Below are positions 21,864-61,327 of a DNA stretch of 61,327 nt, piece by piece. The stretch is from Clostridia bacterium (GTDB lineage: Bacteria > Bacillota > Clostridia > Oscillospirales > CAG-272). Under the pieces are notes generated by a model that was given only the letters and a program-made list of their open reading frames with translations, had not been told where the DNA came from and did not search any database. A program made the translations under genes and the position numbers. Position 1 is the stretch's first letter. Every line of letters begins with the position of its first letter. The stretch lies in the NCBI GenBank assembly GCA_017558715.1, contig JAFYTT010000299.1:1-61327 (forward strand). Direction: 5' to 3'.

Positions 21864-21874
21864 AACCAGCACCA

Positions 21875-21888: not shown

Positions 21889-21951
21889 AAAATGTGGGCA
21901 TTTAATCGGCAAAAGAAAAATGATAAAATGATAGCATGGAGGAATGGACAA

Positions 21952-25778: not shown

Positions 25779-25890
25779 TACAAGTACGGTGCGAGCATCG
25801 GAAAAGCACAGAACTATCCTCGCCTTAACCCTCAAACCTTATACCTTAAACCTTAACCCTCAAATGGGGAACCTTAAACCTTCAATACGG
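25779..25890 (+). repeat. Copy B of the two-copy element: 14-mer TACAAGTACGGTGC plus a 70-nt G-depleted CCTTAAAC-type array
   Basis: 25821-25890 aligns to 4755-4824 (55/70). Bracketed by the inverted repeat aaaagcac (25802-25809) / gtgctttt (25909-25916). Occupies an unusually long 183-nt terL-portal gap. Confidence 0.7.
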
Positions 25891-25950
25891 CAAGTGGCAC
25901 CCTTCCCGGTGCTTTTGCAATATAACAACCCGAAGAAAGGAGGAAACACA

Positions 25951-37195: not shown

Positions 37196-37365
37196 TACTG
37201 GCCGGAGGCAAGGCAACGGTTCTCCATCACATTTTTCAAAGGCAAGGGATAACACCGGACGAAGTGATGGCAAAACCGCCCGGCGTCCGTGCCTTTATGT
37301 TCGCCTCCACCAGAGTGCAGGTGGAAGCGGAAAATAACAAGCTTCATGGAGAGGAGGAATCGTAA
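36683..37365 (+). CDS. Tail assembly chaperone, -1 frameshift-extended product (gpG/gpGT analogue)
   Basis: Hand translation of the -1 frame (LILAGGKATVLHHIFQRQGITPDEVMAKPPGVRAFMFASTRVQVEAENNKLHGEEES*). It fills the otherwise non-coding 170-nt gap and ends overlapping the TMP start (TAATG). Confidence 0.55.
37186..37192 (+). promoter_or_regulatory. -1 programmed ribosomal frameshift slippery heptamer A_AAA_AAC
   Basis: Codons gca aaa aac taa end the chaperone ORF. The -1 frame from c37192 stays open for 57 codons up to TAA 37363-37365. Confidence 0.6.
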
Positions 37366-40300
37366 TGGCAGCTGAAGCATTCCGAATCGAAATACCCATT
37401 CACGTCGAAGACAAAACCGACCCCGGCGTCAGCAAGGCGACGGAGAAGATGAACAAATTCGACAAGCAGAATGAGAAGACCAAGAAGCGGCTCGATCAGA
37501 TGAACAAGACGAAGTGGCAGGTCGCCATTGAAGCGGTCGATAAAGTGACCAGCGTCGTGAGCAAGATCGGAACCACCGTCAGGGGCGTCGCCGGCAGGGC
37601 GTGGAGCTTTACGATGGGCGTCGTAGATAAAGTCACGGCACCCGTCAAGAAGATGATATCAGTCCTGGGCGATATGCTCGGCATTTCAACAGCCGTCTCG
37701 ACAGTCCTCGCGGGTCTCTCGATCAAGAACGCATTAGAGGCGTCCGCCGAATCCTCCCGAATGCTGGCACAGCTGCAAGTGTCGGCAAAGAACATGGGAA
37801 TTGACGACAGCGGAATCCAGAAGATCCTGGATAAAGCCTCGCAAATCCAGCAAACCACGATGTACTCGGACGACGCAATGACCGGCGCAGCTGCCGAACT
37901 TGCGACGTACTTCGAGGACACCGAAGCCATCACCCGAATGATGGATACCGTAATCGACTACGCGGCCGGTATGTCCGGAGGCGTGGAACTTTCCACGGAG
38001 GAAATCATCGACTACACCACCAACCTCGCGAAGATGACCACCGGAGCCTACGACGCCATGACGAAGAAAGGCTTCGAGGTAACTGACGCCCAGAAGAAGA
38101 TCCTCGAAACCGGCACCGACATGGAGAAGGTAGCCGTAATCGAGAGCATCATCCAGGAGAACTGGGAAGGAATGGCGCTCGCCATGAGCAACACCCCGAC
38201 CGGACAGCTCACCAAGATGAAGAACTCCTTCGGCGACATCAGCGAAATGATAGGCGACAAATTATCCCCAGGGGTAACGAGCCTCTTCAGAATGCTGAAC
38301 AACAAGATGCCGACCATCTCCAAACTCCTCGAAGGCGGCGCAGATGCAGCAGGAGCGTGGCTGGAAGAATTCATGCCAACGCTTGAGGACTGGATCGACA
38401 GCGCCATCGAGTGGGTGGACAATTTCGGAAAGCGCGTAAGCGAAGTACTGGGCAGCGACGAATTCAAGAAAGCTGACCTCTTCGGAAAAGTCAAAATCGC
38501 GTGGAACAAGATCATCGCGGAACCCTTCAGCGAATGGTGGGACAGCACCGGCAAGGCGTGGTTCGCGGAGAAAATGAACGGAGTCGGCGAAGCCATCGGC
38601 TCCGGACTGACGACTGGACTACTCGCACTACTCGGAATCGACCTCGACAAAACCCTGCAGGACGGTACCAGCGTAGGCGGAGCGTTCATCGAAGGCTTCA
38701 AGAAAGGCTTTGACACCGAAAAAATCACCGAAGCTCTGAAGGAATGGGCAGACAACAACAAGGAGGTCGTGATAGGCATCGGCGCCGTGGTAGGCTTCAA
38801 CCTTATCACCGGAATCGCCGGCAAGCTCAACGACCTGATCTCCCTCTTCAGGAAGGACAGCGGCGGATCCTCCGCAGCTGACACCGGAAGCCTCGGCGCA
38901 ATGACGGTAACAAGCACAACCACGACCGTCAACGGTACCGTGGTCAACGTTTACGGTGCAACCGTGAACAACGCCAGCGGCAGCGGCGTAGGAACTGCCC
39001 TGAAGAACTTCCTGCCTTCTCTGGCAGGCGGAGCTGCAGGAACCGGTCTCCTTCTCGGCGGCGGAAAAACCATCGCCGGACTGCTCGGAAGCGGCGGAGC
39101 CAAGATCGCAGGTCTCCTCGGAGGAGGAACTGCGGCCGCAGGAGGCACCGCAACCGGACTGACAGCTGCAGGTAGCTGGTTGAGCAAACTGCTGACCCTC
39201 GGCTCGACTTCTTCTGTAATTGGCGCAGACGGAACCCTTCTCGCCGTTCAAGGAGGACTGGGCGGAACCCTCGGCAGCTTTGCAGGCGCTCTCGGAAGCG
39301 GAGCCTCAACAGCGGCAGGAGCCGCAGCGGTAGGCGGCGCATCCATCAGCGGCATCATCGGCGGCATTCTCGGTCTCGGCTCGGCAGCGATCGACCTCTT
39401 CCAGGGTATCGGCAAGAGCAAAGAGGGAGACAAGAAGGCAGCCAAAGACGAATACTGGAAGGCAGGAACCAAGACTGGTATGGTCGGCGCAGGCGCAGGC
39501 ATCGGCGCAGGCATTGGCGCACTCTTCGGAGGCGTTGGCGCAGGACCCGGAGCACTCATCGGCGCAGGCATCGGCGGAATTATTTCGCTTTTCACCGGCG
39601 ACAAAGCCGGCAAGGCACTCTCCGACGGTTCAGACGAAGGCGGCTGGCTTTCCAACGCGTGGGAAGGCACGAAGAAATTCTTCAAGGAAGACCTCGGAAA
39701 ATTCTTCACGCAAACCATCCCGAAAGGCTGGAACAGCTTCTGGGGAGCAATCTCGAACTTTTTCACGACCACAATCCCGACCTGGTGGGGCGGCTTGAAG
39801 GAGAAGGTCTCGACCTTCTTCACAGAGACGATCCCGGAGAAATGGGACGAAATGTGGGAAGGGATCGGCGCCTTCTTTACGGAAGACGTGCCATACGCCA
39901 TAGGCTACGCCTGCGGTAAGATCGAGATATTCTTCACCGAGACAATCCCTGGCTTCTTCGGAGACCTCTGGGACGGAATCAGCACATTCTTCTCTGACAC
40001 GCTGCCTACCTGGGCAAGCGACGTCTGGAATAACCACATCGTCCCATTTTTCACAGAAACCATCCCCGAATTCTTCGGCGGAATCTTTGAAGCTATCGGA
40101 ACCTTCTTCACCGATACCCTTCCCACCTGGGCGTCGGACGTTTGGAACAACTCGATCGTTCCATTCTTCACCGAAGACATTCCGAACTTCTTCAGCGGAC
40201 TGTGGAATTCAATATCAACATTTTTCACGGACACCCTGCCGACGTGGGCATCGGATACGTGGAATAACCATATTGTGCCCTTCTTTACGGAGAGCATCCC

Positions 40301-41015
40301 GTCCTTTTTCTCAACCCTCTGGAATTCGATCTCGACGTTTTTCACAGAGACGCTGCCTACCTGGGCAAGCAACATCTGGAACAACAACATCGTGCCGTTT
40401 TTCACGGAGACAATCCCTGGCTTCTTTGCGAGCATCTGGGACGCCGTGACGAAATTATTCACAGAGGCGATCCCGACCCTGGCATCGAACATCTGGGGAG
40501 CCATCAGCGGATGGTTCAGCAGCATCGGCGACTGGTTCGGCGACGTTTGGGACAAAGTGAGCGGCTTCTTCGGAGCCGGCTATAACGACGCGAAAGGCAA
40601 GCACGCATGGGGCGGCATTATGCACTCCCCGCACGTGGGACTTGTCGCAGAAGACGGACCCGAAGCAATTATTCCTCTTTCGCCCAGCAAGAACGCAAGA
40701 GGACTCGACCTCTGGATGAGAGCCGGCGAACAGCTCGGCGTCAGACCTTACGCAGAAGGCGGAATCGTGGGAGATATCCCCGAAGATATTCCGGTCTCAA
40801 CCTTCAGCGGATCCGGCGGAGGAAACAACGTCGAAATCAAGGTAGAGGTCAACCCGCAATTTGTAATTGAAGCCAAAGACGCAGGCTTTGATGGCGAGAG
40901 CTTGATAGCCGTCATCAAGGCACACATCCGCGAACTGGTGGACGACATCGGCGATGAGCTGGCAGACCGCCTCGCTCGCGTCTTTGCAAATATGCCTGTG
41001 AAGGGAGGAGCGTAA
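37365..41015 (+). CDS. Tape measure protein
   Basis: 1216 aa. Gly/Ala-rich TM-like middle region, tandem FFTETIP...TLPTWAS...WNN.IVP repeats and a C-terminal GLVAEDGPEAIIPL motif. Confidence 0.9.
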   Translation: MAAEAFRIEIPIHVEDKTDPGVSKATEKMNKFDKQNEKTKKRLDQMNKTKWQVAIEAVDKVTSVVSKIGTTVRGVAGRAWSFTMGVVDKVTAPVKKMISVLGDMLGISTAVSTVLAGLSIKNALEASAESSRMLAQLQVSAKNMGIDDSGIQKILDKASQIQQTTMYSDDAMTGAAAELATYFEDTEAITRMMDTVIDYAAGMSGGVELSTEEIIDYTTNLAKMTTGAYDAMTKKGFEVTDAQKKILETGTDMEKVAVIESIIQENWEGMALAMSNTPTGQLTKMKNSFGDISEMIGDKLSPGVTSLFRMLNNKMPTISKLLEGGADAAGAWLEEFMPTLEDWIDSAIEWVDNFGKRVSEVLGSDEFKKADLFGKVKIAWNKIIAEPFSEWWDSTGKAWFAEKMNGVGEAIGSGLTTGLLALLGIDLDKTLQDGTSVGGAFIEGFKKGFDTEKITEALKEWADNNKEVVIGIGAVVGFNLITGIAGKLNDLISLFRKDSGGSSAADTGSLGAMTVTSTTTTVNGTVVNVYGATVNNASGSGVGTALKNFLPSLAGGAAGTGLLLGGGKTIAGLLGSGGAKIAGLLGGGTAAAGGTATGLTAAGSWLSKLLTLGSTSSVIGADGTLLAVQGGLGGTLGSFAGALGSGASTAAGAAAVGGASISGIIGGILGLGSAAIDLFQGIGKSKEGDKKAAKDEYWKAGTKTGMVGAGAGIGAGIGALFGGVGAGPGALIGAGIGGIISLFTGDKAGKALSDGSDEGGWLSNAWEGTKKFFKEDLGKFFTQTIPKGWNSFWGAISNFFTTTIPTWWGGLKEKVSTFFTETIPEKWDEMWEGIGAFFTEDVPYAIGYACGKIEIFFTETIPGFFGDLWDGISTFFSDTLPTWASDVWNNHIVPFFTETIPEFFGGIFEAIGTFFTDTLPTWASDVWNNSIVPFFTEDIPNFFSGLWNSISTFFTDTLPTWASDTWNNHIVPFFTESIPSFFSTLWNSISTFFTETLPTWASNIWNNNIVPFFTETIPGFFASIWDAVTKLFTEAIPTLASNIWGAISGWFSSIGDWFGDVWDKVSGFFGAGYNDAKGKHAWGGIMHSPHVGLVAEDGPEAIIPLSPSKNARGLDLWMRAGEQLGVRPYAEGGIVGDIPEDIPVSTFSGSGGGNNVEIKVEVNPQFVIEAKDAGFDGESLIAVIKAHIRELVDDIGDELADRLARVFANMPVKGGA

Positions 41016-45064: not shown

Positions 45065-45736
45065 ATGAAGAAAGACTTTGACATTGAACGCTTCCCAGAA
45101 AGCGAAAGCGCAAAACAAATGATGAGCCGCATCTCGCCGATTTATGAGAATTCATACGTCGGCAAGTGGCTCTTCGAGGTCATGGGCATCGAATGGGACC
45201 AGGCACGACAACTCGTAGAGAGCCTCCGTCAGCAATGCTTCCTCGAACAATGCACCTGGGGCATCAGATACTGGGAGCAGCGCTACGGTTTAGAGGTTGA
45301 CGAAACAAAAGACCTCGAAACCAGACGCGCGGCGGTAATTGCGAAGCGCGGACGCAAGCAGCCGCTCACCCCAGCCACCCTGGAGGATATTCTGGAAGCG
45401 CTCACCGGAAGACCGGTGACGGTGAACGAAGACAACGGCAACTACACCTTCAAGGTTTCCATCGAAGAAGGAACCTCGACCGTGGACTACATCGCGGTCA
45501 TCAAGAAGATCAACACCGTGAAGCCTTCACACCTCGCATATTCCATCGAGCTGCCCCGCAAGGGCACGCTCTCCATGTACTTCGCGGCCGCCGTCCACGA
45601 AATGAAGACGGTAGCAATCACGGAGTACGACGATAGAGGCGTTTCAGACGTCGTATGGCTTGTTGATGAACTCGGCAACACGCTGGCGGATGAAAATATG
45701 AACGTCTTTATTGACGACGAAAGGAGGCAAACATGA
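45065..45736 (+). CDS. XkdU-like (DUF2313 / P2 gpI-like) baseplate protein
   Basis: Synteny. QCTWGIRYWEQRYGL motif. Confidence 0.6.
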   Translation: MKKDFDIERFPESESAKQMMSRISPIYENSYVGKWLFEVMGIEWDQARQLVESLRQQCFLEQCTWGIRYWEQRYGLEVDETKDLETRRAAVIAKRGRKQPLTPATLEDILEALTGRPVTVNEDNGNYTFKVSIEEGTSTVDYIAVIKKINTVKPSHLAYSIELPRKGTLSMYFAAAVHEMKTVAITEYDDRGVSDVVWLVDELGNTLADENMNVFIDDERRQT

Positions 45737-48033
45737 GCTTAATACCTCAACTCACAGACGCAGGTAGGGGTCTGCTTATTTCCGCGCTTTCCGGCAGTCC
45801 CCTGAACTTCACCAAAATAAAAATCGGCAACGGAACCGCGCCGGACAGTCCGTCTGCCGGTGACTTCTGGTACGACACAGAGAACGAAATTCTCTACGAG
45901 TACAAGGAGACGTGGAGCACCAGCGGAAGATCCATCACAGTCGGAGAATCCGCACCGGAGGAACCGTCAGAGAACGACCTCTGGTACAACACCACGAACA
46001 ACACCCTCTACTACTTCGGAGAAGGCTGGGCAACCGAGACGGCAAACATCACCTGCTCAACCACACCCCCTCCTGAAGCAGAAAACGGCGACCGCTGGTA
46101 TGACACAGCGAACGAAATCCTCTACGCATTCGGAAACAAATGGAACGAGGAGACCGGCGTCGTTATTACTTGCGCCCAGAACGCCCCAGAATCGCCGTCA
46201 GCGGGCGATTACTGGTACGACCAAGCAAACACCAAACTAAAGGTCTGCGCGGCTCTGTGGGGCGCAAAAGAGGGCGTAAACTTCACCATTGCAGACGCGG
46301 CACCCGAAACAGCTGCAGACGGCGACTACTGGTACGACTCCACCAACAACGTGCTGATGAAACACAACGGCACCGAATGGGCGGCAGACAATCAGAAATT
46401 CACCTACGCAGGCGTAGCACCGGAAGCGGCAGCTCTTGGCGACTGGTGGTACGACACTTCAACCGACAGCCTCAAGGAATACGCGCTCGGCTGGCAGAAT
46501 GACGACCACGCCTTCAGCTACGGAATGAGCGCACCTGAAGCACCGAACCAGGGCGACTGGTGGTACGACACATCGCTCCACGTTTACGGTACCGGATGGG
46601 TACCCGACAACGCGACTGTATTCACCTACGGAAGCGCAGCGCCGGCAACACCGGCATCTGGCGAGTGGTGGTTTGACACCGCGTCGTCCATTCTCAAGGT
46701 TTACGGAATGCTCTGGCTGAACGACACCGAGGACAACTTCACCTACAGCGGCACAGAGCCGGCAAGAGCCTACGATGGCGACCTCTGGTATGACACCGAA
46801 GCTGCAGAACTGAAGGAATTCGCAACCGGCTGGATGCAGAACGACGAAAAGCCGTTCACATACGACCCGGTAGCACCCCTCGAACCAAACGCCGGCGACT
46901 GGTGGTACAGCACAGCAGAAGACGTGCTCTACGAATACACCGGAACGCAATGGAACCAGAACTACAGCACCATCACCTGCAGCGTCTCACAGCCGGCGAC
47001 GCAGGATGCGCTCGTAGACCTGGTAAATCCGATGGTCACAATTCCGATCGAGAGCATCGAAAGAGGCTCGAACTACGTCAGCCTTGCTGGTTCCTTCAAC
47101 AACAGCGACGTGGTCGCAGGCTTCAACTGGGCAGAGACCGGCGTCTTCGCAGAGGACGCAGACGGAAACGAGCTGCTATATGCATACTGCCACGCCGGAG
47201 AGCTCGACGAATTCATCCCGGCAAACGACTGCGGCAAAACAATCGAGGTCTCCCTGACCATTCTCGTAATGGTGGGCGATGCCGAGGAAGTAACCGCGAC
47301 GATCGGCGAAGGCTCCGTATACGCCACCAAGAAGAGCCTGGAGGAGCACAAGCGCGACTTCACCAACCCTCACGGCGTAAACGCGGAGCAAATCGGTCTC
47401 GGCAACGTCGAGAACGTGGCGCCGGCAAACATGGCTATTCATTACGACATCGCGGCGACACTTGAAGAACCCGTGCCGGACGAAAAAATGTCCACATTCA
47501 TGGGGAAAGTCAAGCGAGCAATCAACAACCTCATCCTTCACCTGAAGGCAGAGAACCCACACAGCATCACCCCGAAGAAGATCAAAGCAGCAGAAGAGAC
47601 GCACAAACACTCCACCAACGACATGACGGAGGGCATCCTGGGCGCTTCCAGAGGCGGAACCGGATGCGCCAGCATCGGCGCCCTGGCGGAACAGCTCGGC
47701 TCTTACTTCGGTGCTCCGGTCTTCGGCGTTTACAGCGGAAACGGCGACACAAAGCGCTTGATCTCGCTGGACTTCACCCCTTCGGCGGTATTCCTCTGCA
47801 ACGGCAGAGGTATGGTGGGCGACGACGTCGATGGCGTCTGCGGCGGTCTTGCCGTCGGCACCTACGGCTTGCGAACCAGAGGCTGCACATCGTCTGCGCA
47901 CGAAACCACGTGGAGCAACACCCACACGGCGCTGCTCATCACGACGAACGGCTTCTACGTAAACTACAACTCCTCTAACAAGGTCGCAACCAACAAGAGC
48001 GGCGAAACTTACCGCTACATCGCATTCAGATAA
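45733..48033 (+). CDS. Tail fibre protein with at least 10 GDxWYDT-type repeats
   Basis: Repeats GDFWYDTENEILYEY, NDLWYNTTNNTLYYF, GDRWYDTANEILYAF and so on. Position after the baseplate genes. Confidence 0.7.
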   Translation: MSLIPQLTDAGRGLLISALSGSPLNFTKIKIGNGTAPDSPSAGDFWYDTENEILYEYKETWSTSGRSITVGESAPEEPSENDLWYNTTNNTLYYFGEGWATETANITCSTTPPPEAENGDRWYDTANEILYAFGNKWNEETGVVITCAQNAPESPSAGDYWYDQANTKLKVCAALWGAKEGVNFTIADAAPETAADGDYWYDSTNNVLMKHNGTEWAADNQKFTYAGVAPEAAALGDWWYDTSTDSLKEYALGWQNDDHAFSYGMSAPEAPNQGDWWYDTSLHVYGTGWVPDNATVFTYGSAAPATPASGEWWFDTASSILKVYGMLWLNDTEDNFTYSGTEPARAYDGDLWYDTEAAELKEFATGWMQNDEKPFTYDPVAPLEPNAGDWWYSTAEDVLYEYTGTQWNQNYSTITCSVSQPATQDALVDLVNPMVTIPIESIERGSNYVSLAGSFNNSDVVAGFNWAETGVFAEDADGNELLYAYCHAGELDEFIPANDCGKTIEVSLTILVMVGDAEEVTATIGEGSVYATKKSLEEHKRDFTNPHGVNAEQIGLGNVENVAPANMAIHYDIAATLEEPVPDEKMSTFMGKVKRAINNLILHLKAENPHSITPKKIKAAEETHKHSTNDMTEGILGASRGGTGCASIGALAEQLGSYFGAPVFGVYSGNGDTKRLISLDFTPSAVFLCNGRGMVGDDVDGVCGGLAVGTYGLRTRGCTSSAHETTWSNTHTALLITTNGFYVNYNSSNKVATNKSGETYRYIAFR

Positions 48034-48044
48034 GGAGGTAAAGT

Positions 48045-51000
48045 ATGGCAACAACCAAGATAACCGAAAAACAGAGTACGGAAAACGTCAGAAATAGCGC
48101 CAGCGTACTCATCACCCAGCCGGAAACGATCGGCGGCAAAACGAAGGAAAGCCTTCGCAGAGCCACGCTCGCCGCATTCATCCAGGCATTAAAAGACGCC
48201 GGAATTCACGAAGGAATGCAGACCGAAGCAGGCATCGAGGAAATGTACTCGAACCTGGTCAAGAGCGTAGACCCGATCGACACCGGAATCAGAATCACAT
48301 TCTGGGACGACACGTCTGCAGACATCGCCATCGAGAGTGGCGGTCTTGCATTTGACAGCGTGACGTACAACCAGGAGACCGGATACCTTCACATCCAGAT
48401 GGAAGGCGAGGACGTCGTGGATCCTTGCTTCATCGGAGGCGGCGGAGGCGGCGGAAGCTCCTCCGGCACCGTCGTAAAGCTGGAGAACCTCACCGGCGCA
48501 TCGGCAATCACCGTCGCGCATGGCGAAGACGTGAATATCGCCTTCAGCTTTTACGACTACGACAGCGGCGGCGAATTCACAAACAGCAGCGGTACGCTTG
48601 AGCTCTCTATTAACGGCTCAACCGTTATCCAGAAGAACATCGAGCAGGGCAACCACACCATCAACGTGGGACCGTACCTCGTAGAAGGAACCAACAAAGT
48701 GAAGGTAAAGGTAACAGACGAAGACGACAACTACGGCACGAAGACATGGACGATCAGCGCCATCGCGCTATCCGTAAGCGCCAGCTTTGACGACACGGCT
48801 ATCTACACCGGGGACGTCCTCTTCAGATACACCCCGATCGGCAACAACATCGAGAAGCTGATCCACTTCGAGATTGACGGCACGGAGGTAGCGACAGCTA
48901 CCGTCACCGCCTCCAACAGACAGCAGACGCAGAGCATCCCCAGACAGATCCACGGCGCCCACAGGCTGAAGGTTTACGCCACAGCCACGGTGGACGGCGT
49001 CGACGTAACCAGCAACACGCTGGAATACGACGTGATCTGGGCAGAGGAAGGAAACTCCACTCCTATCATCGCCTGCAGCTACGTCGGAGGAGCGAAGCAA
49101 TACACGACAATCTCAATCCCTTACATCGTCTACAACCCGGCAAGCCTGACGGCTTCCATCGTCCTTGCGGTGGACGGCGTGGAAGTTTCCAACCTTACCG
49201 TCGACAGAACGAGACAGACGTGGAGCTACAAGCCAGACACAGCCGGCACGAAGGCGCTCACCATCACTTGCGGCACCGTTGTCAAAACGATAACCCTCGA
49301 AGTCGAGGACATCGGAATCAACGTGGAACCGGTGACAACCGGTCTCGTTTTTGACCTTAACCCCGCAGGACACACAAACAACGACACCGACCGCGAAGAA
49401 TTCGGATATAAAGACGGCGCCGGCACAAACCACCCGCTGACCTTCTCCGACAACTTCGACTGGTCGAACGGCGGCTTCAAGACAGACGCCGACGGAAACA
49501 CGTACTTCTGTGTGAAGTGCGGCACTTACGTGGAAGCCGACAAGTCCTTATTCGCAGACGATGCGATGAGAACCGGCAAGGAGCTGAAATTCATATTCAA
49601 GGCAACCAACTGCCGAAATTATGACGCCCAGATCCTCTCCTGCATGGCGGACAACATCGGCGTACAGCTTCAGGCGCAGAGAGCGACAGTCAGATCGCAG
49701 CTGACCTCGATGGAGGTACCATACTGCGAAGACAGCATCATCGAGATGGACATCAACATCGAGCCTGACGGCGGCGACCGCGTAATGATGATCTGGCTCG
49801 AAGGCATTCCGTCGAAGGTGGCTATTTACGCCGACAACGACAACTTCACGCAGGACAATCCGCAGCTGCTCCGAATCGGATCCAATGACTGCGACGTCCA
49901 CATTTACCGCGTGAAGGCTTACGAGAACGACCTGACACGCCTCGAAATCCACGAAAACTGGATGGCAGACGCGCCCGACGCCGAGGAAATGCTGGAGCGC
50001 TACAACCGCAACAACATCTACGACTCCAACGGCGACATCGACATCCAGAAGCTCATTGACGCAAGTCCGAACCTCCGCGTGATTACGGTACACGCACCGA
50101 AGATGACCACGGCAAAGACGGACGAAGTCACCTGCACGGTCGATCACGTCATGAAAGCCGGCGGCGTAAAGCACAAATTCACCGGCGCCAACGTTACGAT
50201 GAAGGCTCAAGGTACTTCCTCCGCACAGTACGGAGAAGCCGCGCTGAACCTCGACCTCGAATTTGAGGCAATCGAGGACGACGCAGGCGAGGTAACCACG
50301 GCAGCCTTCGTTTTCGGAGACGGAACCACCGGAGACAAATACTCCATGACCGACAAGAGCATCGGCGTGAATTACTTCAACATCAAGCTGAACGTTGCTT
50401 CTTCGGAAAACGCGAACAACGTCGTCATCGCAGACGAATACAACGAATTCCAGCCGTACATCAACCCGGCAAGAGCGGCGAATCCCAAGGTCAGAGACAC
50501 CGTCGAGGGACACCCCTGCGTCGTATTTTTCCACAACACCGGAACCGAGGCGACCAAGATGGGATCCATTACGGTACCGGCAGGCGCAACCGTTCTCTAC
50601 GGATGCGGCGATATGAACAACTCGAAGAAAAACCTCGCCGTATTCGGACAGCAGGACAACGCGCTGCAGTCATGCGTTGAAATCAACAACAACACAAATA
50701 ATGGCTGCTTATGGAAGAGCGACGACTTGACGAATGAGACCTGGGACGACGAGGGATCGTTCCAATTCCGCTACCCGAAAAAGCCGTCTGCAGACCACAA
50801 GGCAGCATTCCAGAGAGTCCTCTCCTGGGTAGTTTCCACCGACAGAACTGCAGCGACCGGCGCGGCACTTCCGGAGAGCAAGACGTACAACGGAAAAACC
50901 TACACGCACGACACGGCAGAATACCGTGGCGCGAAATTCGTGGCAGAATTCGAGGACTACTTCATCAAGAGCTCCGCGCTTTACCATTACTTATTCACAG

Positions 51001-54000
51001 AGCGCCACGCGATGGTTGATAACCGCGCGAAGAACGTCTTCGTCTCCACCGACGACGGTATCCATTGGGACTTCACAAAGGACTACGATAACGATACCGC
51101 CGACGGTAACGACAACGAGGGCGGCTTGACGCTTTCCTACGGTATGGAAGACACCGACACCATCGGCACAAAGGACGTCTTCAACGCGTCCAGCAGCGTG
51201 CTCTGGTGCAACGTCCGCGACTTCTTCTACGACGACCTCCGCGCACTCTTCCTGACGCTCGAATCAAAGGGCGCATGGAACGCAGAGCGAATTCTCGCAA
51301 AATTCGCAGCGCACCAGTCGCCAAGACCGGAAGCGCTGGTCATTGAGGATATGTGGAAGAAATACATCCGCCCGTACACCAACAGCGGAACCGAAGCATA
51401 CCTCGAAATGCTCTACGGCACCAAAGCAGACCAGAGGCGCCAGTTTGAGATTTACCAGGAGAAATACATCGCCTCCAAATACAGAGGCTCAAAGGCGACC
51501 TCCGACACGATCACATTCCGCGCATACACCCCGACCAACTGGGGCGGCGTAGCACCGAGCGACCTGATAACAATCACGCCATACGCCGATATGTACATCA
51601 CGCTGCAGTCCGGCTCCGGAATCGTAAGCGTGAGAGCGAAGCGCGGACAATCCTACGAATTGAAGTGCCCGATCGACACCCTGAACGACACCGAAATCTA
51701 CATCTACACGGCTTCGATGGTTTCAGACGTCGGCGACCTGGCGCCCCTTTACATCGGCTACTTCAACATCGCAAGCGCCGTAAAACTTCGCCACCTGAAG
51801 ATAGGCGACGGCGCCGTGGGATACAGCAACACCAACGCCACGACCATCGGTCTGGGCAATAACGTGCTCCTGGAGACTCTCGACATTCAGAACCTGCCAA
51901 ACCTGGCACAAACACTCGACCTCACCGGCTGCGACGCCCTTCTCACTTTGAAGGCGAACGGATCCGGAATCACCGGCGTATCGTTTGCGCCCGGAGGAAA
52001 AATCCAGACAGCGCAGGTGCCAGCAATCAGCAGCATCTCCGCAATCGCTCTGAAGAACCTGCAGAGCCTCACATTCGCATCCTACGACGCGCTCCGCACA
52101 GCGAGAATCGAGGACTGCCCGACCATCAACACCCTCGACTTCATCGAGAGAGCCACCGGACTGACCAGAATCCGTATCCTCGGAATCAACTGGACGCTTC
52201 CTGACACAACGATCCTCGACCGCCTCGTGGCGATTAAGGGTCTGGACGAAGCAGACCACAACCTGGAGCAGTCGGTATTGACCGGCGCCGTTTACGTGCC
52301 GATTATGAGGCAGTCGAAGCTCACGGCGTACCGAAACGCATGGTCAGACCTTGCGATCAGCTACGAAACCCTCGTACAGCAGTACCTGGTAACATTCCTC
52401 AACTGGGACGGCACGGTACTCCACAGCGAATACGTCGACCGAGGAAACGACGTCGCCGACCCGGTAGCAGCAGGAACCATCCAGACGCCGACACGCGAGA
52501 GCAGCATCTCAACCGTTTACACATACGACGGATGGGACAGCGACCTGACAGCGATTATTGCACCGAGAACCATCACCGCGACGTACAACGAGACGCCTCG
52601 ACAGTACACCGTGCGCTGGATCTCCCAGGTCGGAATCGTTATGGACACCCAGGTCGTAGATTACGGCTCTGAAGCCACCTACGCAGGCGAGACGCCCGAA
52701 AGAACCGACGAAGAGGGACAATTCGTGTATTACCTCTTCGAGGGATGGGATAAGAGCACCGGCTTCATCACCGGAGACCTCGACGTCTGGGCAGTATGGC
52801 AGCGCGGCGAACTTCCGAACGCAGGAACGGACATCGGCAGAATGACACCGGCGCAGATTTACGCCGTATCAAAAAGCGGCAAGAGCCTCGACTACTTCTC
52901 GTTGAAGGACAGAGTGCCGGTAACCCTCGGCTTCACACCGGAGTATAGCAACATCCCATTCACGGATGTAGCGACCGAGCTGAAGCTCGACGGCAGAACC
53001 TACGTCGACACCGGGATCCAGCTCTTGAAAAACGGCATCGGCGACGCCTGGACGGTAGTCGCAGACGTAACCTTCAGCGACACGACCGCAGACCAGACGA
53101 TGATCTGCTGTATGCAGGAAGACGGATACATGGGCTTCAAGCTCAAGTATTCGGGCGGACCTTCCGTACAATGGAGCACCAACACCTACAACAGCGGCGC
53201 AACCACATACCGAGAGATTATGGTCATCAGACACGAAGCCGGCAGCAGAAACGTCAAGGTTTACTCCTCGAAGGCGTACACCAACGCTCCGGAATTCAAA
53301 GAGCTGACAAAGACCATCGACACCCAGAGCAACTGCACACTTGTGCTCGGCGCAACCAAGACCGACTCCGGCTACATCGGAGACTACGCAAAGGGTACAA
53401 TTCACTCCTGCCGCATCTGGCACGGAGATCTCGGCGACACGGACTGCCGCAACATTGTAACCTGGCCGCGTGAGACCTACCTCTTCGAGGTGGGCGGCTT
53501 CGGAAATTACAAGCTGGCAGCCAACAGCGTACAGCCGACCAGCGTGGACTTCATCTGCGCAAGCCTCCTGGAGCGCACCATGCAGATGAACACGGTCAAC
53601 AAGAACACCGGCGGCTTTGACGATATGCCACTCTTCGCATGGATGCAGAATCGCCTTTATAAGGCATTCCCCGAAGTATGGCGCCAGATGATGAAGCAAT
53701 GCAAAATCAGCTACAACTGCTACGTCGACGGCACCAACCACGAAATCGAATCCGCGAACGCATACCTCTGGGTACCGTCATACGCGGAGGTTCAGAGCAC
53801 CACAGCAGAGCCGTGGATTTACGAAGGCAACTGGGTGACGTTCTTCACGAACAACACAACCAGAATCAAATTCAGAGGCGTGGCGCTTCCGGACGGATAC
53901 TCGATATTCACATCCGGAACCGACCCGACAACCAACGCGGCGAACAACGTCAAGGAAGGCGACCTCTGGATCAACACTTCAGAATCCAGCAAAGGCTACA

Positions 54001-54164
54001 TCCGACACAACGGCGCATGGTTTGGTGCGTACTACTTCTGGCTTCGCGGCGCGGCAGTCGCGAACGCGCCGACCTTCGGCTTTGTGAACTACACCGGCTA
54101 CGCGTACTACGGCGGCTACCACGCGACGTCCAGCCTTGGCGTCTGCCCTCGCTTCTCAATCTAA
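48045..54164 (+). CDS. Giant multidomain tail fibre / receptor-binding protein; DGR target (VR at the C-terminus)
   Basis: 2039 aa. CotH-like segment (VDNRAKNVF...HWDFTKDYDNDTADG, tentative), LRR region, two Listeria-Bacteroides/InlB-B type repeats (YLVTFLNWDG..., YTVRWISQVG...GWD), a LamG-like region and a C-type-lectin-like end carrying the VR. Confidence 0.85.
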   Translation: MATTKITEKQSTENVRNSASVLITQPETIGGKTKESLRRATLAAFIQALKDAGIHEGMQTEAGIEEMYSNLVKSVDPIDTGIRITFWDDTSADIAIESGGLAFDSVTYNQETGYLHIQMEGEDVVDPCFIGGGGGGGSSSGTVVKLENLTGASAITVAHGEDVNIAFSFYDYDSGGEFTNSSGTLELSINGSTVIQKNIEQGNHTINVGPYLVEGTNKVKVKVTDEDDNYGTKTWTISAIALSVSASFDDTAIYTGDVLFRYTPIGNNIEKLIHFEIDGTEVATATVTASNRQQTQSIPRQIHGAHRLKVYATATVDGVDVTSNTLEYDVIWAEEGNSTPIIACSYVGGAKQYTTISIPYIVYNPASLTASIVLAVDGVEVSNLTVDRTRQTWSYKPDTAGTKALTITCGTVVKTITLEVEDIGINVEPVTTGLVFDLNPAGHTNNDTDREEFGYKDGAGTNHPLTFSDNFDWSNGGFKTDADGNTYFCVKCGTYVEADKSLFADDAMRTGKELKFIFKATNCRNYDAQILSCMADNIGVQLQAQRATVRSQLTSMEVPYCEDSIIEMDINIEPDGGDRVMMIWLEGIPSKVAIYADNDNFTQDNPQLLRIGSNDCDVHIYRVKAYENDLTRLEIHENWMADAPDAEEMLERYNRNNIYDSNGDIDIQKLIDASPNLRVITVHAPKMTTAKTDEVTCTVDHVMKAGGVKHKFTGANVTMKAQGTSSAQYGEAALNLDLEFEAIEDDAGEVTTAAFVFGDGTTGDKYSMTDKSIGVNYFNIKLNVASSENANNVVIADEYNEFQPYINPARAANPKVRDTVEGHPCVVFFHNTGTEATKMGSITVPAGATVLYGCGDMNNSKKNLAVFGQQDNALQSCVEINNNTNNGCLWKSDDLTNETWDDEGSFQFRYPKKPSADHKAAFQRVLSWVVSTDRTAATGAALPESKTYNGKTYTHDTAEYRGAKFVAEFEDYFIKSSALYHYLFTERHAMVDNRAKNVFVSTDDGIHWDFTKDYDNDTADGNDNEGGLTLSYGMEDTDTIGTKDVFNASSSVLWCNVRDFFYDDLRALFLTLESKGAWNAERILAKFAAHQSPRPEALVIEDMWKKYIRPYTNSGTEAYLEMLYGTKADQRRQFEIYQEKYIASKYRGSKATSDTITFRAYTPTNWGGVAPSDLITITPYADMYITLQSGSGIVSVRAKRGQSYELKCPIDTLNDTEIYIYTASMVSDVGDLAPLYIGYFNIASAVKLRHLKIGDGAVGYSNTNATTIGLGNNVLLETLDIQNLPNLAQTLDLTGCDALLTLKANGSGITGVSFAPGGKIQTAQVPAISSISAIALKNLQSLTFASYDALRTARIEDCPTINTLDFIERATGLTRIRILGINWTLPDTTILDRLVAIKGLDEADHNLEQSVLTGAVYVPIMRQSKLTAYRNAWSDLAISYETLVQQYLVTFLNWDGTVLHSEYVDRGNDVADPVAAGTIQTPTRESSISTVYTYDGWDSDLTAIIAPRTITATYNETPRQYTVRWISQVGIVMDTQVVDYGSEATYAGETPERTDEEGQFVYYLFEGWDKSTGFITGDLDVWAVWQRGELPNAGTDIGRMTPAQIYAVSKSGKSLDYFSLKDRVPVTLGFTPEYSNIPFTDVATELKLDGRTYVDTGIQLLKNGIGDAWTVVADVTFSDTTADQTMICCMQEDGYMGFKLKYSGGPSVQWSTNTYNSGATTYREIMVIRHEAGSRNVKVYSSKAYTNAPEFKELTKTIDTQSNCTLVLGATKTDSGYIGDYAKGTIHSCRIWHGDLGDTDCRNIVTWPRETYLFEVGGFGNYKLAANSVQPTSVDFICASLLERTMQMNTVNKNTGGFDDMPLFAWMQNRLYKAFPEVWRQMMKQCKISYNCYVDGTNHEIESANAYLWVPSYAEVQSTTAEPWIYEGNWVTFFTNNTTRIKFRGVALPDGYSIFTSGTDPTTNAANNVKEGDLWINTSESSKGYIRHNGAWFGAYYFWLRGAAVANAPTFGFVNYTGYAYYGGYHATSSLGVCPRFSI
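54017..54151 (+). repeat. DGR variable region (VR)
   Basis: Aligns without gaps to TR 55060-55194. 20 mismatches, all at positions that are A in the TR. The 3' 14 nt ggcgtctgccctcg are identical (IMH-like). Confidence 0.9.
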
Positions 54165-54186
54165 AAGGCGCAGCCGCAATCCTAAA

Positions 54187-54215
54187 TATCTGCCCCGCAT
54201 AAGTCGGGGCAGATA
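54187..54215 (+). other. Perfect 11-bp stem / 7-nt loop hairpin 36 nt downstream of the VR (DGR target-recognition hairpin and/or terminator)
   Basis: tatctgccccg-cataagt-cggggcagata. Confidence 0.7.
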
Positions 54216-54236
54216 ACCAGGAAGAAAGGAGAAACC

Positions 54237-55031
54237 ATGTCGGTACTACGGAGCAAAAGAAAGACCGCATTCAGCGAATTTGAAAGGCAAATGGGGATCA
54301 TAGTCCGGCACACCAGCGACCGGCTCAACTCCGTGCCGATGCGGTATCGAAAATTCATGTACCCGAAAATTTACGACCCGACGAACCGAGCATACACCGA
54401 CGTCATTCTCGCCAACGAGCAGAACGTCAAGACGCCGGAGGGAGCACGGCAAAGAAGCGCACTCTTCACCGATGCGCTTCGCGCCATACTCTCGCTTCAG
54501 AAACCCCTTCTATCGCTTTGGAACATCCTCGACATTGGCGAAGACAGCGCAAAGCAATGGGCGGATATGCTCAACCGGGAAATCGCCTTAATTTTCGGAG
54601 CAACAAAAAGAGAGGAGGTGCAGCCGATGATCGTAGCGCTGCCCAAACGCAAAATGCAGAGGCTCGCGTTCCTTCAGAAGATGGCGGAGCTTCACAAATA
54701 CACCTACGAGAAAATCGGACACGCACCGAATCATTGTAAGGACTTCTTGAGCGGAAGGATAGCTGATCACATCGACACCGCCCTCTGCTCGGTCGTCCTT
54801 GCGAACCACAAAATACCGGAGACCAGGGCGGAAGCAGAAAAGCGCGAGCGCTACATTCAGGCGGCAATAGATAGCCTCAACGCTATGCAGAGACCGCTCC
54901 TGGCTCTTTGGAACATCATGGACTACAGCGAAAAGACGATGGACGACTGGGCAGGTCTCCTCGACGAAGAGCTGAAACTTCTGGAGGGAATGAAGAAGGC
55001 GGATCGCGCCCGATACCAAGACCTTCGGTAG
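54237..55031 (+). CDS. avd: Accessory variability determinant, internally duplicated (tandem Avd-Avd, 264 aa)
   Basis: Position between VR and TR. The two halves align (KRK..., VILANEQN/VVLANHKI, LQKPLLSLWNILD/MQRPLLALWNIMD, KQWADMLNREIALI/DDWAGLLDEELKLL). Basic helical protein. Confidence 0.65.
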   Translation: MSVLRSKRKTAFSEFERQMGIIVRHTSDRLNSVPMRYRKFMYPKIYDPTNRAYTDVILANEQNVKTPEGARQRSALFTDALRAILSLQKPLLSLWNILDIGEDSAKQWADMLNREIALIFGATKREEVQPMIVALPKRKMQRLAFLQKMAELHKYTYEKIGHAPNHCKDFLSGRIADHIDTALCSVVLANHKIPETRAEAEKRERYIQAAIDSLNAMQRPLLALWNIMDYSEKTMDDWAGLLDEELKLLEGMKKADRARYQDLR

Positions 55032-55059
55032 AAAGGAGACATCGGGTGGCGTTCTGTCA

Positions 55060-55194
55060 ATGGTTTGGTGCGAACAACTTCTGGCTTCGCGGCGCGGCAG
55101 TCACGAACGCGACGAACTTCGGCAATGTGAACAACAACGGCAACGCGAACAACAACGGCAACAACGCGACGAACAGCAATGGCGTCTGCCCTCG
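55060..55194 (+). repeat. DGR template region (TR)
   Basis: Contains 14 AAC and 2 AAT codons in the VR reading frame. Located between avd and RT. Confidence 0.9.
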
Positions 55195-55500
55195 ATTTTC
55201 ATAATTACAGTAACCAGGTATGAGGGTGAAATAATCAAAATTATGAGAAGGAGAACGCAACCCTCCGGGAGAAACACCCGGTAAATTCAAGGTCGCCCTG
55301 CTTCAAGGGCGGCACACCACGTCGGTGTCCCAGGTGCGGTCGGGAGGACGCTTCTTGCATGGCAGGAGGACAACCGTCTCCTCTTGTTTCATTCCCGGTA
55401 CCGCTTACCCGGCAGAACGGCGGAGAACCAAAATCCGGAGGCAACTCCGGACGGCGGGGACTATACCAGCCGGGACGGGCGGAGGCGAAACTTCATCACT
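55195..55500 (+). ncRNA. DGR RNA spacer between TR and RT (structured, GC-rich)
   Basis: Several perfect local hairpins (cgccct-gcttca-agggcg, cacc-acgtc-ggtg, ccggag-gcaa-ctccgg). No convincing RBS or ATG. Confidence 0.45.
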
Positions 55501-56718
55501 ATGACCAATCAAGAAAGAATTCAAGCAAGAATCGCTCGTGATAAGGCAAGGAAAGCCGAGAAGCGCAAAGCGCAGATCGAGCAGCACGGAACCTTCACGA
55601 ACGTAATCACCATGCAGGCGCTTCTCCGCTCGCTTCAGAGGCGCCGGAAAGATGTGGAGTGGAAAGGCAGCGTTCAGAGCTACATCGCCCACGCACCAGT
55701 CAAAATGAAAAGAGCCAAAGACAGCCTATGGGCAGGACGGCTCGACGTCAACCGCAAAATCAAACAGATGACGATCTGCGAACGCGGCAAGAAGCGAAAC
55801 ATCCACGCCATAATGATCGACAGCCGAGTAATCCAGGGCGCATTGTGCGACAGCTCGATAACCCCGCTCACCCAGCCGTCCCTCATTTATGACAACCCAG
55901 CGAGCACCAAAGGAAAAGGCGTCAGCCACGCCCGGCGCCGAATTGTGCGACACATCGAAGACCAGGTAAGGCAAAGCAGGAGCGACTTCTACGCTCTTGT
56001 TTACGACTTCTCCGGCTTCTTCGATAGCATAAGCCACAGCCTCTGCAGGAGGAAACTGGCAGAAGCCGGTCAGGATGAACAACTCCAGGCGCTGACGATG
56101 TACTTCATCAAAATGTACCAGGAGCAGGACATCTCATTGATAACCGACAAAAGCGAAAAAGAAAGGCTTATGGAAGAACTGCGAGCCGACAGAGCCTGCG
56201 GGGCAACCCTCGGCAGTCAGATCTCGCAGGACATGGCGCTGGTGGTGCCAAACGAACTCGACCACGCCATCAAGGACAAAGCGGGCATACGGCACTACAT
56301 CCGCTACATGGACGACGGCAATATCCTCCATGCCGACAAGGACTACCTACGAAGGCTTCTGAAAAGCATCAAAAGGCTATGCGCCAAGCTCGGACTAAAA
56401 CTGAACGAAAAGAAGACCCGCATCGTCAAGGCGACGCGAGGCTTCACATTCCTGAAGGTTCGATATACCGTGACCGAGACCGGCAGAATCATCAAAAAGA
56501 TGGCGAAGTCGGGCATCGTCCGGATGCGGCGCAAACTGAAGAAATTCCGCAAGCTGGTGGATGCCGGTCTGATGACCCGCGACGATGCCTTCAATTCCTT
56601 CAAGTCGTGGTTCGGAAACGCCAAGACCATCGCGCACAGCTACCGCACCAGGAAGGCAATGCTCATCCTTTACAACCGCTTATTTAACCGATACAGAACA
56701 GGAGGTCTGATAGCATGA
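55501..56718 (+). CDS. DGR reverse transcriptase
   Basis: IRYMDDGNIL (motif 5, YMDD), ATLGSQISQ (the DGR-type xxxSQ motif 4) and FYALVYDFSGFFDSI (motif 3). First in-frame ATG at 55501. The track TTG start 55384 lies in the spacer. Confidence 0.9.
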   Translation: MTNQERIQARIARDKARKAEKRKAQIEQHGTFTNVITMQALLRSLQRRRKDVEWKGSVQSYIAHAPVKMKRAKDSLWAGRLDVNRKIKQMTICERGKKRNIHAIMIDSRVIQGALCDSSITPLTQPSLIYDNPASTKGKGVSHARRRIVRHIEDQVRQSRSDFYALVYDFSGFFDSISHSLCRRKLAEAGQDEQLQALTMYFIKMYQEQDISLITDKSEKERLMEELRADRACGATLGSQISQDMALVVPNELDHAIKDKAGIRHYIRYMDDGNILHADKDYLRRLLKSIKRLCAKLGLKLNEKKTRIVKATRGFTFLKVRYTVTETGRIIKKMAKSGIVRMRRKLKKFRKLVDAGLMTRDDAFNSFKSWFGNAKTIAHSYRTRKAMLILYNRLFNRYRTGGLIA

Positions 56719-57185
56719 AATACTACAAAGTCATAGCCAACGGAACCGTCATAGACGCGAACTTCGTCTGGCTGAAATGGCAGGAGAAGAACCGCATCCT
56801 CATCGGCTGCGATGCCGAGGACGCTCAATTCATCCAGTCAACAGACCAGGCGCACGTGTGGCGCGTTCCCTGGCTCAACCCCGTGCCTGCAGGCGCCGGC
56901 GAATACGAGACGGTGGAAGCCGTGGAGATTACCGAAGAGGAATACATCACGATCCGCCAGCAGCTCGATGACGGCTTCGAGGTCGTGGAACCGGAAGAAC
57001 CGGAAACACCGGTCGAGCCGGATCCCGAAGAAGGCACCGAGGAAACACCCACAGAACCCGTGATGACGCCCGAAGAGATGAGGCGCAAGATCACGCAGCT
57101 GGAAGCAGCGCTCGAAGAGCAGACCATGACGAACGAATTCCTCATGGGGTGCCTGCTCGAAATGTCGGAGGTCGTCTATGATTAG
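56715..57185 (+). CDS. Hypothetical acidic protein (156 aa), translationally coupled to the RT
   Basis: ATGA overlap with the RT stop. PEEPETPVEPDPEEGTEETPTEP low-complexity linker. Confidence 0.5.
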   Translation: MKYYKVIANGTVIDANFVWLKWQEKNRILIGCDAEDAQFIQSTDQAHVWRVPWLNPVPAGAGEYETVEAVEITEEEYITIRQQLDDGFEVVEPEEPETPVEPDPEEGTEETPTEPVMTPEEMRRKITQLEAALEEQTMTNEFLMGCLLEMSEVVYD

Positions 57186-57228
57186 GCGTTTAATATTCCG
57201 AATTTTATACGGAAAGGAGGGCGAAGCA

Positions 57229-57360
57229 ATGATGGCAATGTTATGGGCACAGCAGATCATGCTGGGTAAGAAGACATTCGCGCAGGTTCCCCGCTTGCTG
57301 AAGGACCAGGTCAAAGAGCTCCTGGTTGACAGCGGCATGGGCGATCTGGCAGCCGAGTAA
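57229..57360 (+). CDS. Small XkdX-like protein (43 aa, tentative)
   Basis: ATG 57229 preceded by gaaaggaggg. Size and position as in PBSX-like phages. Confidence 0.4.
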   Translation: MMAMLWAQQIMLGKKTFAQVPRLLKDQVKELLVDSGMGDLAAE

Positions 57361-60845: not shown

Positions 60846-61301
60846 ATGAAAACTAATTACAGAGAAATCGTAGGAATGCCCAAACTCGCACCCACCCTCG
60901 GAATCACCAGCCTGAAGACCGACCTCAACCTCAAGCAGAAGAAGGCAGTCAAGAACATCAAATACTGCGCGAATGATCAATGGCAATTTGTGAATTCCTG
61001 GTACGACGAAAAGAGCGAAAGCGCCCGTCAGTTTATGATGGATCCGAAGGCGCTCTTCCAAACCATTTATAAAGAGTCAATGGAGAACGTCTACGACGAA
61101 GGCTTCTGCGGCTTCGGAGGCGGCGCGGCTTCCTACCTGAAGGACATCCGCTTCTGCGGAAAGCAATTCCTGCAGACGGTAACCTTCTACTACCTCGCAA
61201 AGCTCCTCGAAGAGAGCGTCCCGGAGGTTGACGGCACAGAGGAAGATGCAGAGCGCGTAGCAAACGAGCTCCTGGCGCTCAAGGCAGAGCTGGGACTTTA
61301 A
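60846..61301 (+). CDS. Hypothetical protein (151 aa), first gene of the P2 operon
   Basis: ATG 60846 lies 7 nt after GGAGGA. The track start 60717 lies in the leader. Confidence 0.6.
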   Translation: MKTNYREIVGMPKLAPTLGITSLKTDLNLKQKKAVKNIKYCANDQWQFVNSWYDEKSESARQFMMDPKALFQTIYKESMENVYDEGFCGFGGGAASYLKDIRFCGKQFLQTVTFYYLAKLLEESVPEVDGTEEDAERVANELLALKAELGL

Positions 61302-61327
61302 GGAAGGAGGCGCTGATGATTTACACC
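61187..61327. repeat. Terminal direct repeat copy 2 (identical to 1..141)
   Basis: See copy 1. Confidence 0.95.

Follow-up and report, generated by a model that had tools for sequence, protein, structure and literature searches.

The window examined here is contig JAFYTT010000299.1 of assembly GCA_017558715.1, taken at its full length of 61,327 nucleotides and derived from a Clostridia bacterium. We focus on the diversity-generating retroelement (DGR) found in its tail module, a cassette in which a target gene with a variable region (VR) is followed by the accessory gene avd, a template region (TR), a structured RNA and a reverse transcriptase (RT) gene. The parts of this cassette, in which IMH stands for initiation of mutagenic homing, are the following:

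48045-54164, + strand: target gene, 2039 aa, located after baseplate-wedge and tail-fibre genes, with a VR-bearing C-terminus
54017-54151, + strand: VR, 135 nt, aligning with the TR without gaps and coding for the final ~48 target residues
54138-54164, + strand: IMH-like element, made of a 14-nt block that is the same as in the TR (GGCGTCTGCCCTCG), then a VR-specific tail (CTTCTCAATCTAA)
54188-54214, + strand: conserved hairpin, 10 bp, ATCTGCCCCG / CATAAGT / CGGGGCAGAT, DNA fold z = -4.7
54237-55031, + strand: fused double avd, 264 aa, pI 9.4, single frame
55060-55194, + strand: TR, 135 nt, 38 adenines, IMH* block at 55181-55194
55196-55479, + strand: structured spacer RNA, Rfam RF03077 (RT-2 RNA), 67.2 bits against a gathering score of 40
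55501-56718, + strand: DGR RT, 405 aa, pI 10.4, RVT_1 2e-19, phrog_1423 2.5e-59
56209-56229, + strand: RT motif LGSQISQ
56305-56316, + strand: RT motif YMDD
56715-57185, + strand: acidic open reading frame (ORF), 156 aa, pI 4.05, whose ATG overlaps the RT stop (ATGA 56715-56718)

All the DGR parts lie on one strand, in the order target-VR, hairpin, avd, TR, spacer and RT. The spacer, that is, the full interval between TR and RT (55195-55500), measures 306 nt, which confirms the gene order and the spacer of about 300 nt proposed by a first-pass annotation of the sequence.

Template, variable region, reverse transcriptase and target

The gapless alignment of VR and TR spans 135 nt and contains 20 mismatches; the TR base is an adenine at every one of them (20/20), and the two sequences are identical at the remaining 115 positions (115/115). 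The hypergeometric probability that all 20 mismatches fall on the 38 adenines among 135 positions is 8.9e-14. Sixteen codons are changed in this way, and when read in the VR frame, the TR holds 14 AAC and 2 AAT codons. These counts, as well as the gapless alignment with its adenine-only mismatches, had been announced by the first-pass annotation and were recovered when recomputed. No mismatch at another base occurs within the 135 nt, the first one being at position 139. A near-repeat whose differences are confined to adenines is the expected signature of a DGR, and the coding properties of the pair agree with it: the VR is coding, codon positions 1 and 2 hold 36 of the 38 TR adenines, and a stop can be reached from none of the 21 adenine-containing TR codons. 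The repertoire reachable from the TR amounts to about 1.7e21 peptides. A search of the window with the adenine-masked TR, allowing up to 3 mismatches, recovered the VR and the TR alone; the additional VRs that were to be looked for are thus not found there. The TR is also open in the VR frame, as a 98-aa ORF that starts with TTG (54908-55204), and gene callers place ORFs of 49-53 aa over the TR in two related loci (L011 and L023). Such calls are probably spurious and caused by the TR copying a coding sequence.

The last 14 nt of the VR and of the TR are identical, and the sequences diverge afterwards, as had been claimed. This picture can be refined at position 136 (55195 in the TR, 54152 in the VR), where the TR has an A and the VR a C. 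Since every one of the 11 loci compared shows this A/C state, and since the change is synonymous (CGA/CGC), we read it as a fixed difference between IMH and IMH*, and not as a product of mutagenesis. The hairpin sits 36 nt past the IMH block, with no T-tract after it, and terminator calling on the cassette did not call it. Across 12 related loci, 96.7% of its cells are paired and 4 of its 10 pairs show compensatory changes, a covariation score that was reached by none of 500 shuffles; its loop of 7 nt is conserved as CRTRAGT. The cassette therefore presents both the IMH/IMH* pair and the inverted repeat 3' of the VR that are found in DGRs, for which a role in homing may be proposed from what is described in Bordetella phage BPP-1.

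The RT carries the motif 4 of DGR type (LGSQISQ) and the YMDD box that had been attributed to it, in agreement with the [I/L/V]GxxxSQ and YxDD signatures of DGR RTs. By search scores, it is nearer to DGR RTs than to group II or retron RTs. Indeed, its best match in the PDB is chain 8ub7_A (2.8e-15), ahead of a group II RT (6e-7) and of a retron-type RT (3e-5). This chain of 328 aa is deposited as 'Reverse transcriptase', harbors IGSLTSQ and YMDD, and is presumably the bRT of BPP-1. One could still imagine that the RT comes from another retroelement (group II intron, retron or defence RT) and that the repeat is a diverged partial gene duplication. Pfam gives the generic RVT_1 domain as its sole assignment, and NCBIfam returns weak sub-threshold matches to a group II maturase, to Drt3a and to a retron RT. 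However, these matches stay far below their cut-offs (71 against 300, 45 against 200 and 32 against 235 bits, respectively), 8ub7_A is the best solved relative, and RT-2 is the sole Rfam match across the whole window, with no group II intron RNA and no retron msr/msd. Moreover, a duplication diverging by point mutations would have to place 20 of 20 changes on adenines (P ~9e-14), a bias that recurs in 24 independent pairs. An origin of this kind is thus barely conceivable, and the assignment of the RT to the DGR type is the one that we retain.

The spacer matches the RT-2 model over its full length (positions 1-222 of 222, E 2e-14), which makes it a member of the family RF03077 described by Weinberg et al. 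(2017), and it lies upstream of an RT gene, as expected for this motif. Both in the window and in 7 of 9 relatives, the match runs from 2 nt past the IMH* block to 22 nt short of the RT start. An RT-2 match lies between TR and RT in 8 of these 9 relatives, including L008, in which it is partial and starts about 150 nt downstream of the TR. The structure was resolved through the Rfam model and a 12-sequence alignment of the spacer, which supports 61 consensus pairs and shows compensatory changes in 29; the single-sequence fold of TR and spacer is no better than shuffles (z -0.6). The covarying pairs include a 10-bp stem that starts right after IMH*. In BPP-1, a 5' spacer stem binds Avd (bioRxiv 10.1101/2023.10.23.563531), and the stem of the window would, by analogy, be similarly placed. 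In its main text, the paper on the RT motifs links only RT-10 to a DGR, that of BPP-1, and speculates about the others (PMC5737381). Considering where the RT-2 RNA starts and ends relative to IMH* and to the RT gene, we assign to it the role of DGR spacer in this clade, as its position suggests. An orphan Rfam motif would thereby gain a role, and a second, unrelated spacer architecture could be set beside that of BPP-1.

The VR lies at the C-terminus of a DUF6273 domain (Pfam PF19789, approximately nt 53589-54104, residues 1849-2020), which is recognized with 26.3 bits against a cut-off of 23.5. Single-query and profile searches with the C-terminal domain of the target gave four usable homologues, and PF19789 is carried by all the database homologues of this C-terminus. 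DUF6273 is a documented VR-bearing target domain of DGRs in phages of gut Firmicutes, including Faecalibacterium, where it is described as C-type-lectin-like (PMC10743442, PMC11792537). For the target of the window, such a fold would follow from this literature on other DUF6273 proteins (PMC10743442), and the VR-bearing domain is presumably a receptor-binding surface. The target had been called giant, which is borne out since its 2039 aa compare with about 2030-2160 aa for the targets of the relatives, which share its C-terminus. It had also been placed at the tip of a tail fibre; this placement is deduced from the gene position, after baseplate and fibre genes, and from the DUF6273 domain. 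One related locus (L024, 368-2932) has the same type of cassette, with a fused avd, a TR and an RT, but its DUF6273 target is shorter, at 854 aa against about 2030 aa, and only 6 mismatches were detected between its TR and VR. From this shorter target in the same type of cassette, it appears that the N-terminal part of the target is exchangeable.

Related loci, activity and mechanism

Using protein seeds, we collected 24 distinct related cassettes, all of the same architecture. In the 24 distinct TR/VR pairs, 388 of 399 mismatches are found at TR adenines. The relatives are prophages in metagenome-assembled genomes (MAGs) of Ruminococcus sp. (goat colon; 92% Avd identity), Acutalibacteraceae, Eubacteriales and Clostridia. 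The adenine-masked TR, used as an exact pattern against IMG/VR and the JGI metagenome contigs, gave no match: such a pattern misses the relatives, whose TRs differ at non-adenine positions, and the genome of the window is itself absent from the collections searched in this way. A nucleotide search of the cassette against the INPHARED phages did not return any match either. Four comparisons between close loci bear on the activity of the element:

L011 and L012 (two samples, one study): TR identical, flanks 99.9-100% identical, 24/24 VR differences at TR adenines
L001 and L013: TR identical, flanks 92-97%, 22/23 VR differences at adenines
Window and L001: 7 TR differences, flanks ~92-94%, 19/19 remaining VR differences at adenines
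Window and L013: 7 TR differences, flanks ~92-94%, 22/23 remaining VR differences at adenines

In the two comparisons that involve the window, the 7 TR substitutions are all mirrored in the own VR of each phage (7/7). Such a concerted change of TR and VR at non-adenine positions requires TR-to-VR transfer after the lineages split. Together with the adenine-only VR differences between near-identical relatives, these mirrored substitutions indicate that the element is active or was so very recently. By genome comparison, the transfer is unidirectional, from TR to VR, and accompanied by adenine mutagenesis. This type of comparison needs no reads and could be applied at scale as a test of DGR activity.

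Some members of the clade depart from this behavior. Two loci from different metagenomes (L006 and L007) have identical VRs. In L016 (9103-9729, on a MAG contig), the RT frame is 208 aa and is probably truncated or frameshifted; the fused avd is intact there and 22 of 26 TR/VR mismatches fall at adenines. L003 (8541-8660, IMG/VR UViG_3300045988_007930) has a 26-nt deletion in the VR, between AAC-repeat units, which frameshifts the C-terminus of the target and reflects faulty retrohoming or template slippage, unless it stems from the assembly; L002, found in the same metagenome with the same TR, has its VR intact. Members of the clade can thus be static or broken, so that one may ask whether the cassette of the window is a fossil in which all the parts are present and the VR/TR pattern is the relic of a past activity. 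This is, however, quite improbable, considering that all the ORFs of the window are intact, that the 7 TR substitutions found in the VRs require homing after a split at about 8% divergence, and that the VR equals the TR at all its non-adenine positions although the flanks differ by 6-8% between relatives.

Adenine-only mismatches, an RT of DGR type, an Avd fold, a covarying hairpin, a spacer RNA and a comparative signature of transfer thus converge, and the cassette is very probably a complete and functional DGR in the tail module of a contractile-tailed phage of gut Clostridia, of about 61 kb. Several points weigh against this reading. The class of the RT is deduced from motifs and search scores. 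The promoter scan of the cassette found nothing, and the structure of the transcript is therefore conjectural. For a priming duplex between TR and spacer, the sole candidate is a weakly supported helix between the 3' ends of the two. The AlphaFold2 (AF2) model of the DUF6273 domain, built on a 5-sequence alignment, is poor (pLDDT 44) and leaves the fold unconfirmed here, and a PDB sequence search with the profile of the target C-terminus gave chance matches alone. Finally, activity in the phage of the window is proposed from relatives that are 91-93% identical.

The functioning of the element can be outlined by analogy with BPP-1, the model for the assembly of the ribonucleoprotein, the priming, the route of homing and the binding of the receptor. 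The avd gene, the TR, the RT-2-type spacer RNA and the RT gene would be transcribed on one strand, and the basic RT and the basic Avd would assemble on the TR-spacer RNA. Within the spacer, cDNA synthesis would be primed; with the TR as template, bases would be misincorporated at random opposite adenines, and the cDNA would then replace the VR at the 3' end of the gene for the 2039-aa target, at a homing site set by the common 14-nt IMH block and the conserved hairpin downstream. Up to 20 residues of the C-terminal DUF6273 domain could be recoded in this way, never to a stop.

The likeness to the BPP-1 cassette (mtd-avd-TR-brt) is extensive. Both share the gene order target-VR, hairpin, avd, TR, spacer and RT, the adenine-specific differences from TR to VR, and a VR at the 3' end of the gene for a tail-associated protein of the receptor-binding type. 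They also share an identical GC-rich 3' block followed by the IMH/IMH* divergence, an inverted repeat after the VR, a basic accessory protein with the Avd fold and a structured RNA between TR and RT. The differences are equally clear. The Avd of BPP-1 is a 128-aa protomer of a homopentamer, whereas that of the window is a fused double domain of 264 aa. The spacer of BPP-1 is 140 nt long and of the RT-10 type (PMC5737381), whereas that of the window is more than twice this length and of the RT-2 type. The BPP-1 target is the 381-aa Mtd, whereas that of the window is a 2039-aa protein with a DUF6273 domain. The window further differs by the 7-nt loop of its hairpin and by its RT of 405 aa, which is translationally coupled to the acidic ORF.

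That the DGR class as such is known, as stated in the first-pass annotation, is well established for this type of target, since gut Firmicute phages are known to carry DGRs whose targets contain DUF6273 (PMC10743442, PMC11792537). In those named Lelie, CP11, Roos and Pioen, and in target2 of nd4 and nd12, the VR is at the C-terminus of DUF6273, as in the window (PMC11792537, PMC10743442). They also share gut Clostridia hosts with it, as well as VR codons rich in Tyr and other aromatics. In contrast, target2 of nd4/nd12 has 234-294 aa, and the window has a single target of 2039 aa. A double Avd is mentioned in neither of these two papers, and the term 'Avd' is absent from PMC11792537. The DGR of the window is in itself one more well-supported and apparently active example from gut Clostridia phages, mainly of value for annotation. 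What goes beyond routine annotation is the RT-2 RNA as a DGR spacer and the paralogous double Avd with its retained internal start.

The double Avd and its candidate internal start

The features of the avd gene that matter here are the following:

54237-54626, + strand: N-terminal Avd-like domain
54627-55028, + strand: C-terminal Avd domain, matching phrog_3206 'Avd protein of DGR'
54612-54629, + strand: internal Shine-Dalgarno (SD) sequence GAGGAGG and, 8 nt past it, an in-frame ATG (54627-54629), at the domain junction, candidate start of a separate C-terminal Avd

The first-pass annotation spoke of a tandem Avd. Two Avd units are indeed present, with halves that are 30% identical (E 3e-18) and both basic, but they do not form two genes, being encoded in a single fused ORF. 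The AF2 model of the fused protein is of high quality (pLDDT 90.5, pTM 0.87) and shows two helical bundles. With Foldseek, the model matched, by one bundle at a time, the pentameric 2gsc (TMt 0.86-0.89, rmsd 1.9 A) and 2rld, the Avd of BPP-1 (4dwl, TMt 0.71) and, in BFVD, single-domain 'Avd-like' phage proteins (TMt ~0.8). No BFVD entry spans both bundles, and a PDB sequence search with the fused Avd gave chance matches alone, so that the kinship is visible at the fold level only. The protein is thus a basic one, made of four-helix bundles and encoded next to the TR, as expected of an Avd. It is not the usual single protomer of ~110-135 aa that forms a homopentamer in a 5:1:1 complex with RT and spacer RNA, because the gene encodes two diverged Avd domains in one chain.

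This arrangement is not confined to the window. The family of the fused Avd comprises 68 clusters at 90% identity, nearly all of 263-266 aa, and an exhaustive profile search among 1.84 billion representatives (at 50% identity) gave 322 matches, of which about 100 are full-length proteins of 260-290 aa; ordinary Avds of ~133 aa match the C-terminal half only. The recurrence of the full-length form at both levels of clustering and in many samples excludes that the fusion is an artefact of assembly or of a frameshift join. The double Avd can also occur as two genes. In a low-GC relative (L028 298-1967, on a contig of the Logan SRR9008937 assembly), the halves are separate genes 12 nt apart: avdN (129 aa) ends with TAG and is followed by AAAGGAG, 7 nt and the ATG of avdC (133 aa), and the two products are homologous to the matching halves (E 3e-8 and 4e-23, respectively). 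This locus is the sole one counted as evidence for split avd genes. Two half-length Avds were considered and rejected as split genes, P0077 because it is at a contig edge with its upstream frame open and P0139 because 31 nt separate its start from the end of its contig (903 nt). Ahead of its avd genes, L028 has a small DUF6273 ORF of 196 aa, after which a stretch resembling a VR seems to lie in a different frame.

The junction between the two domains looks like a translation start. An SD core is found 7-12 nt upstream of an in-frame ATG or GTG at the Avd junction in every locus examined. In a first set, it was present in 13 of 13 loci, against a background of 10.6%, and the combination of start codon and SD was found at only 9 of 2927 other in-frame codons. 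Seven more loci agree, which brings to 20 of 20 the distinct loci with the SD core and the ATG/GTG, protein identity going as low as 47%. The GGAG core of the junction is encoded by varied residue pairs (EE, KE, TE, PE and EG), which indicates a selection on the nucleotides. In addition, all 7 loci with a Val at the junction encode it by GTG, which accounts for 42% of the Val codons in these genes. We conclude from these comparisons that the clade uses two paralogous Avd units, the fused form of which keeps the initiation signals of the second one. A large and conserved DGR family thus uses a double Avd, either as a fusion that retains the internal start or as two separate genes.

The internal SD and ATG could be a leftover without a role, the gene giving a single fusion product. 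Such signals might simply have been inherited, as the split version in L028 exists, and the acidic residues of the linker (EE, KE) might be under selection at the protein level. Against this stand the conservation in all 20 loci over a low background, the encoding of one same GGAG core through different residues, and the exclusive use of GTG at the junction Val. The whole of this alternative, artefactual fusion included, keeps an appreciable weight, although we do not favor it.

The issue matters for the architecture of the complex. To our knowledge, the only structural model of a DGR ribonucleoprotein has a homopentameric Avd, and a ring of five bundles cannot be assembled from fused pairs alone. 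It is possible, if rather unlikely in this precise form, that the fused avd yields two products, the full AvdN-AvdC and a free AvdC, and that the ring is a hetero-assembly, for instance of two fused proteins and one AvdC, which together would supply five bundles. If this was the case, the homopentamer would have been turned into a heteromer with a division of labour and a stoichiometry set by translation, and the split form of L028 would be an ancestral or an alternative version. The BPP-1 particle contains 1 RT, 5 Avd and 1 RNA, with two of the protomers in contact with the RT and all five with the spacer stem (bioRxiv 10.1101/2023.10.23.563531). A hetero-assembly of the proposed kind would fit this asymmetry. 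A heteromeric Avd would reveal which protomer positions bind the RT or the RNA, and would provide an asymmetric complex for structural work. No published description of a fused double Avd was found in the searchable literature, apart from the remark of Wu et al. (2018, PMC5758913) that one of the 372 DGRs surveyed has two avd genes. Compared by description only, this DGR also has more than one Avd unit per cassette, arranged as in L028, and differs from the window, whose units share one frame with a retained internal start.

The acidic ORF and the surrounding phage genome

The first-pass annotation had noted that the RT is coupled to a downstream gene, and the ATGA overlap listed above bears this out. 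All 14 loci checked show the same 4-nt overlap between the RT and the acidic ORF, as do 6 of 7 further loci according to their gene tables. In the acidic protein, both the N-terminal domain and the C-terminal helix are conserved, with an acidic Pro/Glu linker between them, and no family of Pfam, PHROG or NCBIfam matched it. It is possibly an accessory factor of the DGR or just the next phage gene, and the conserved synteny cannot separate the two since all the loci come from one phage clade. A candidate identity was CH1, a small acidic protein (160-169 aa) of DGRs that have no avd, HRDC or MSL (Wu et al. 2018). The size and charge are similar, but the cassette has an avd and CH1 is found only in DGRs without it, so that this identity, compared by description, was rejected. 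After the acidic ORF comes a 60-aa ORF (57178-57360) of the CD1375-like family in Pfam (28.7 bits against a cut-off of 27); the same family is present at this position in several relatives, just before the lysis genes.

The window begins and ends with an exact direct repeat of 141 nt (1-141 and 61187-61327). Identical contig ends of 141 nt are typical of a circular contig produced by an assembler with k=141, and are what a circular assembly is expected to show. The unique genome, of 61,186 bp, is that of a complete contractile-tailed phage, because it encodes a terminase, a portal, a major head protein, a sheath, a tape measure, a baseplate and an endolysin. The DGR target comes after the genes for terminase, portal, head, sheath, tape measure, baseplate and fibre.

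Several other features of this genome were observed. Directly upstream of the DGR target, a 766-aa tail-fibre-like protein (45733-48033) contains at least 7-8 tandem repeats of ~38 aa with a conserved 'GDxWYD' motif (45838-46916), corresponding to the repeat families D1 and D4, with periods of 108-117 nt. The tape measure gene (37365-41015) holds about ten copies of a 57/60-nt repeat (19-20 aa, motif 'FFTExIP') at 39693-40474, and also Gly-rich 12-nt repeats at 39492-39588. Tandem 21-nt units (AAACCTTAAACC...AAATGGGGAAC, repeat family D8) occur at two sites 21 kb apart, 4761-4827 and 25827-25893, the second of which is at the start of the portal ORF (25789-27393), just 3' of the terminase gene (24268-25767); a function as regulatory or packaging signal is conceivable. 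Upstream of the terminase, a 586-aa protein (21841-23601) combines a ParB-like nuclease/partition domain with a DNA methyltransferase (phrog_498, 6.7e-134). Among the relatives, L002 (16070-16134) and L003 (16074-16138) have matches to the type II hammerhead ribozyme (RF02276, 41 bits against a gathering score of 37) about 5 kb 3' of their DGR, a feature that the window does not share.

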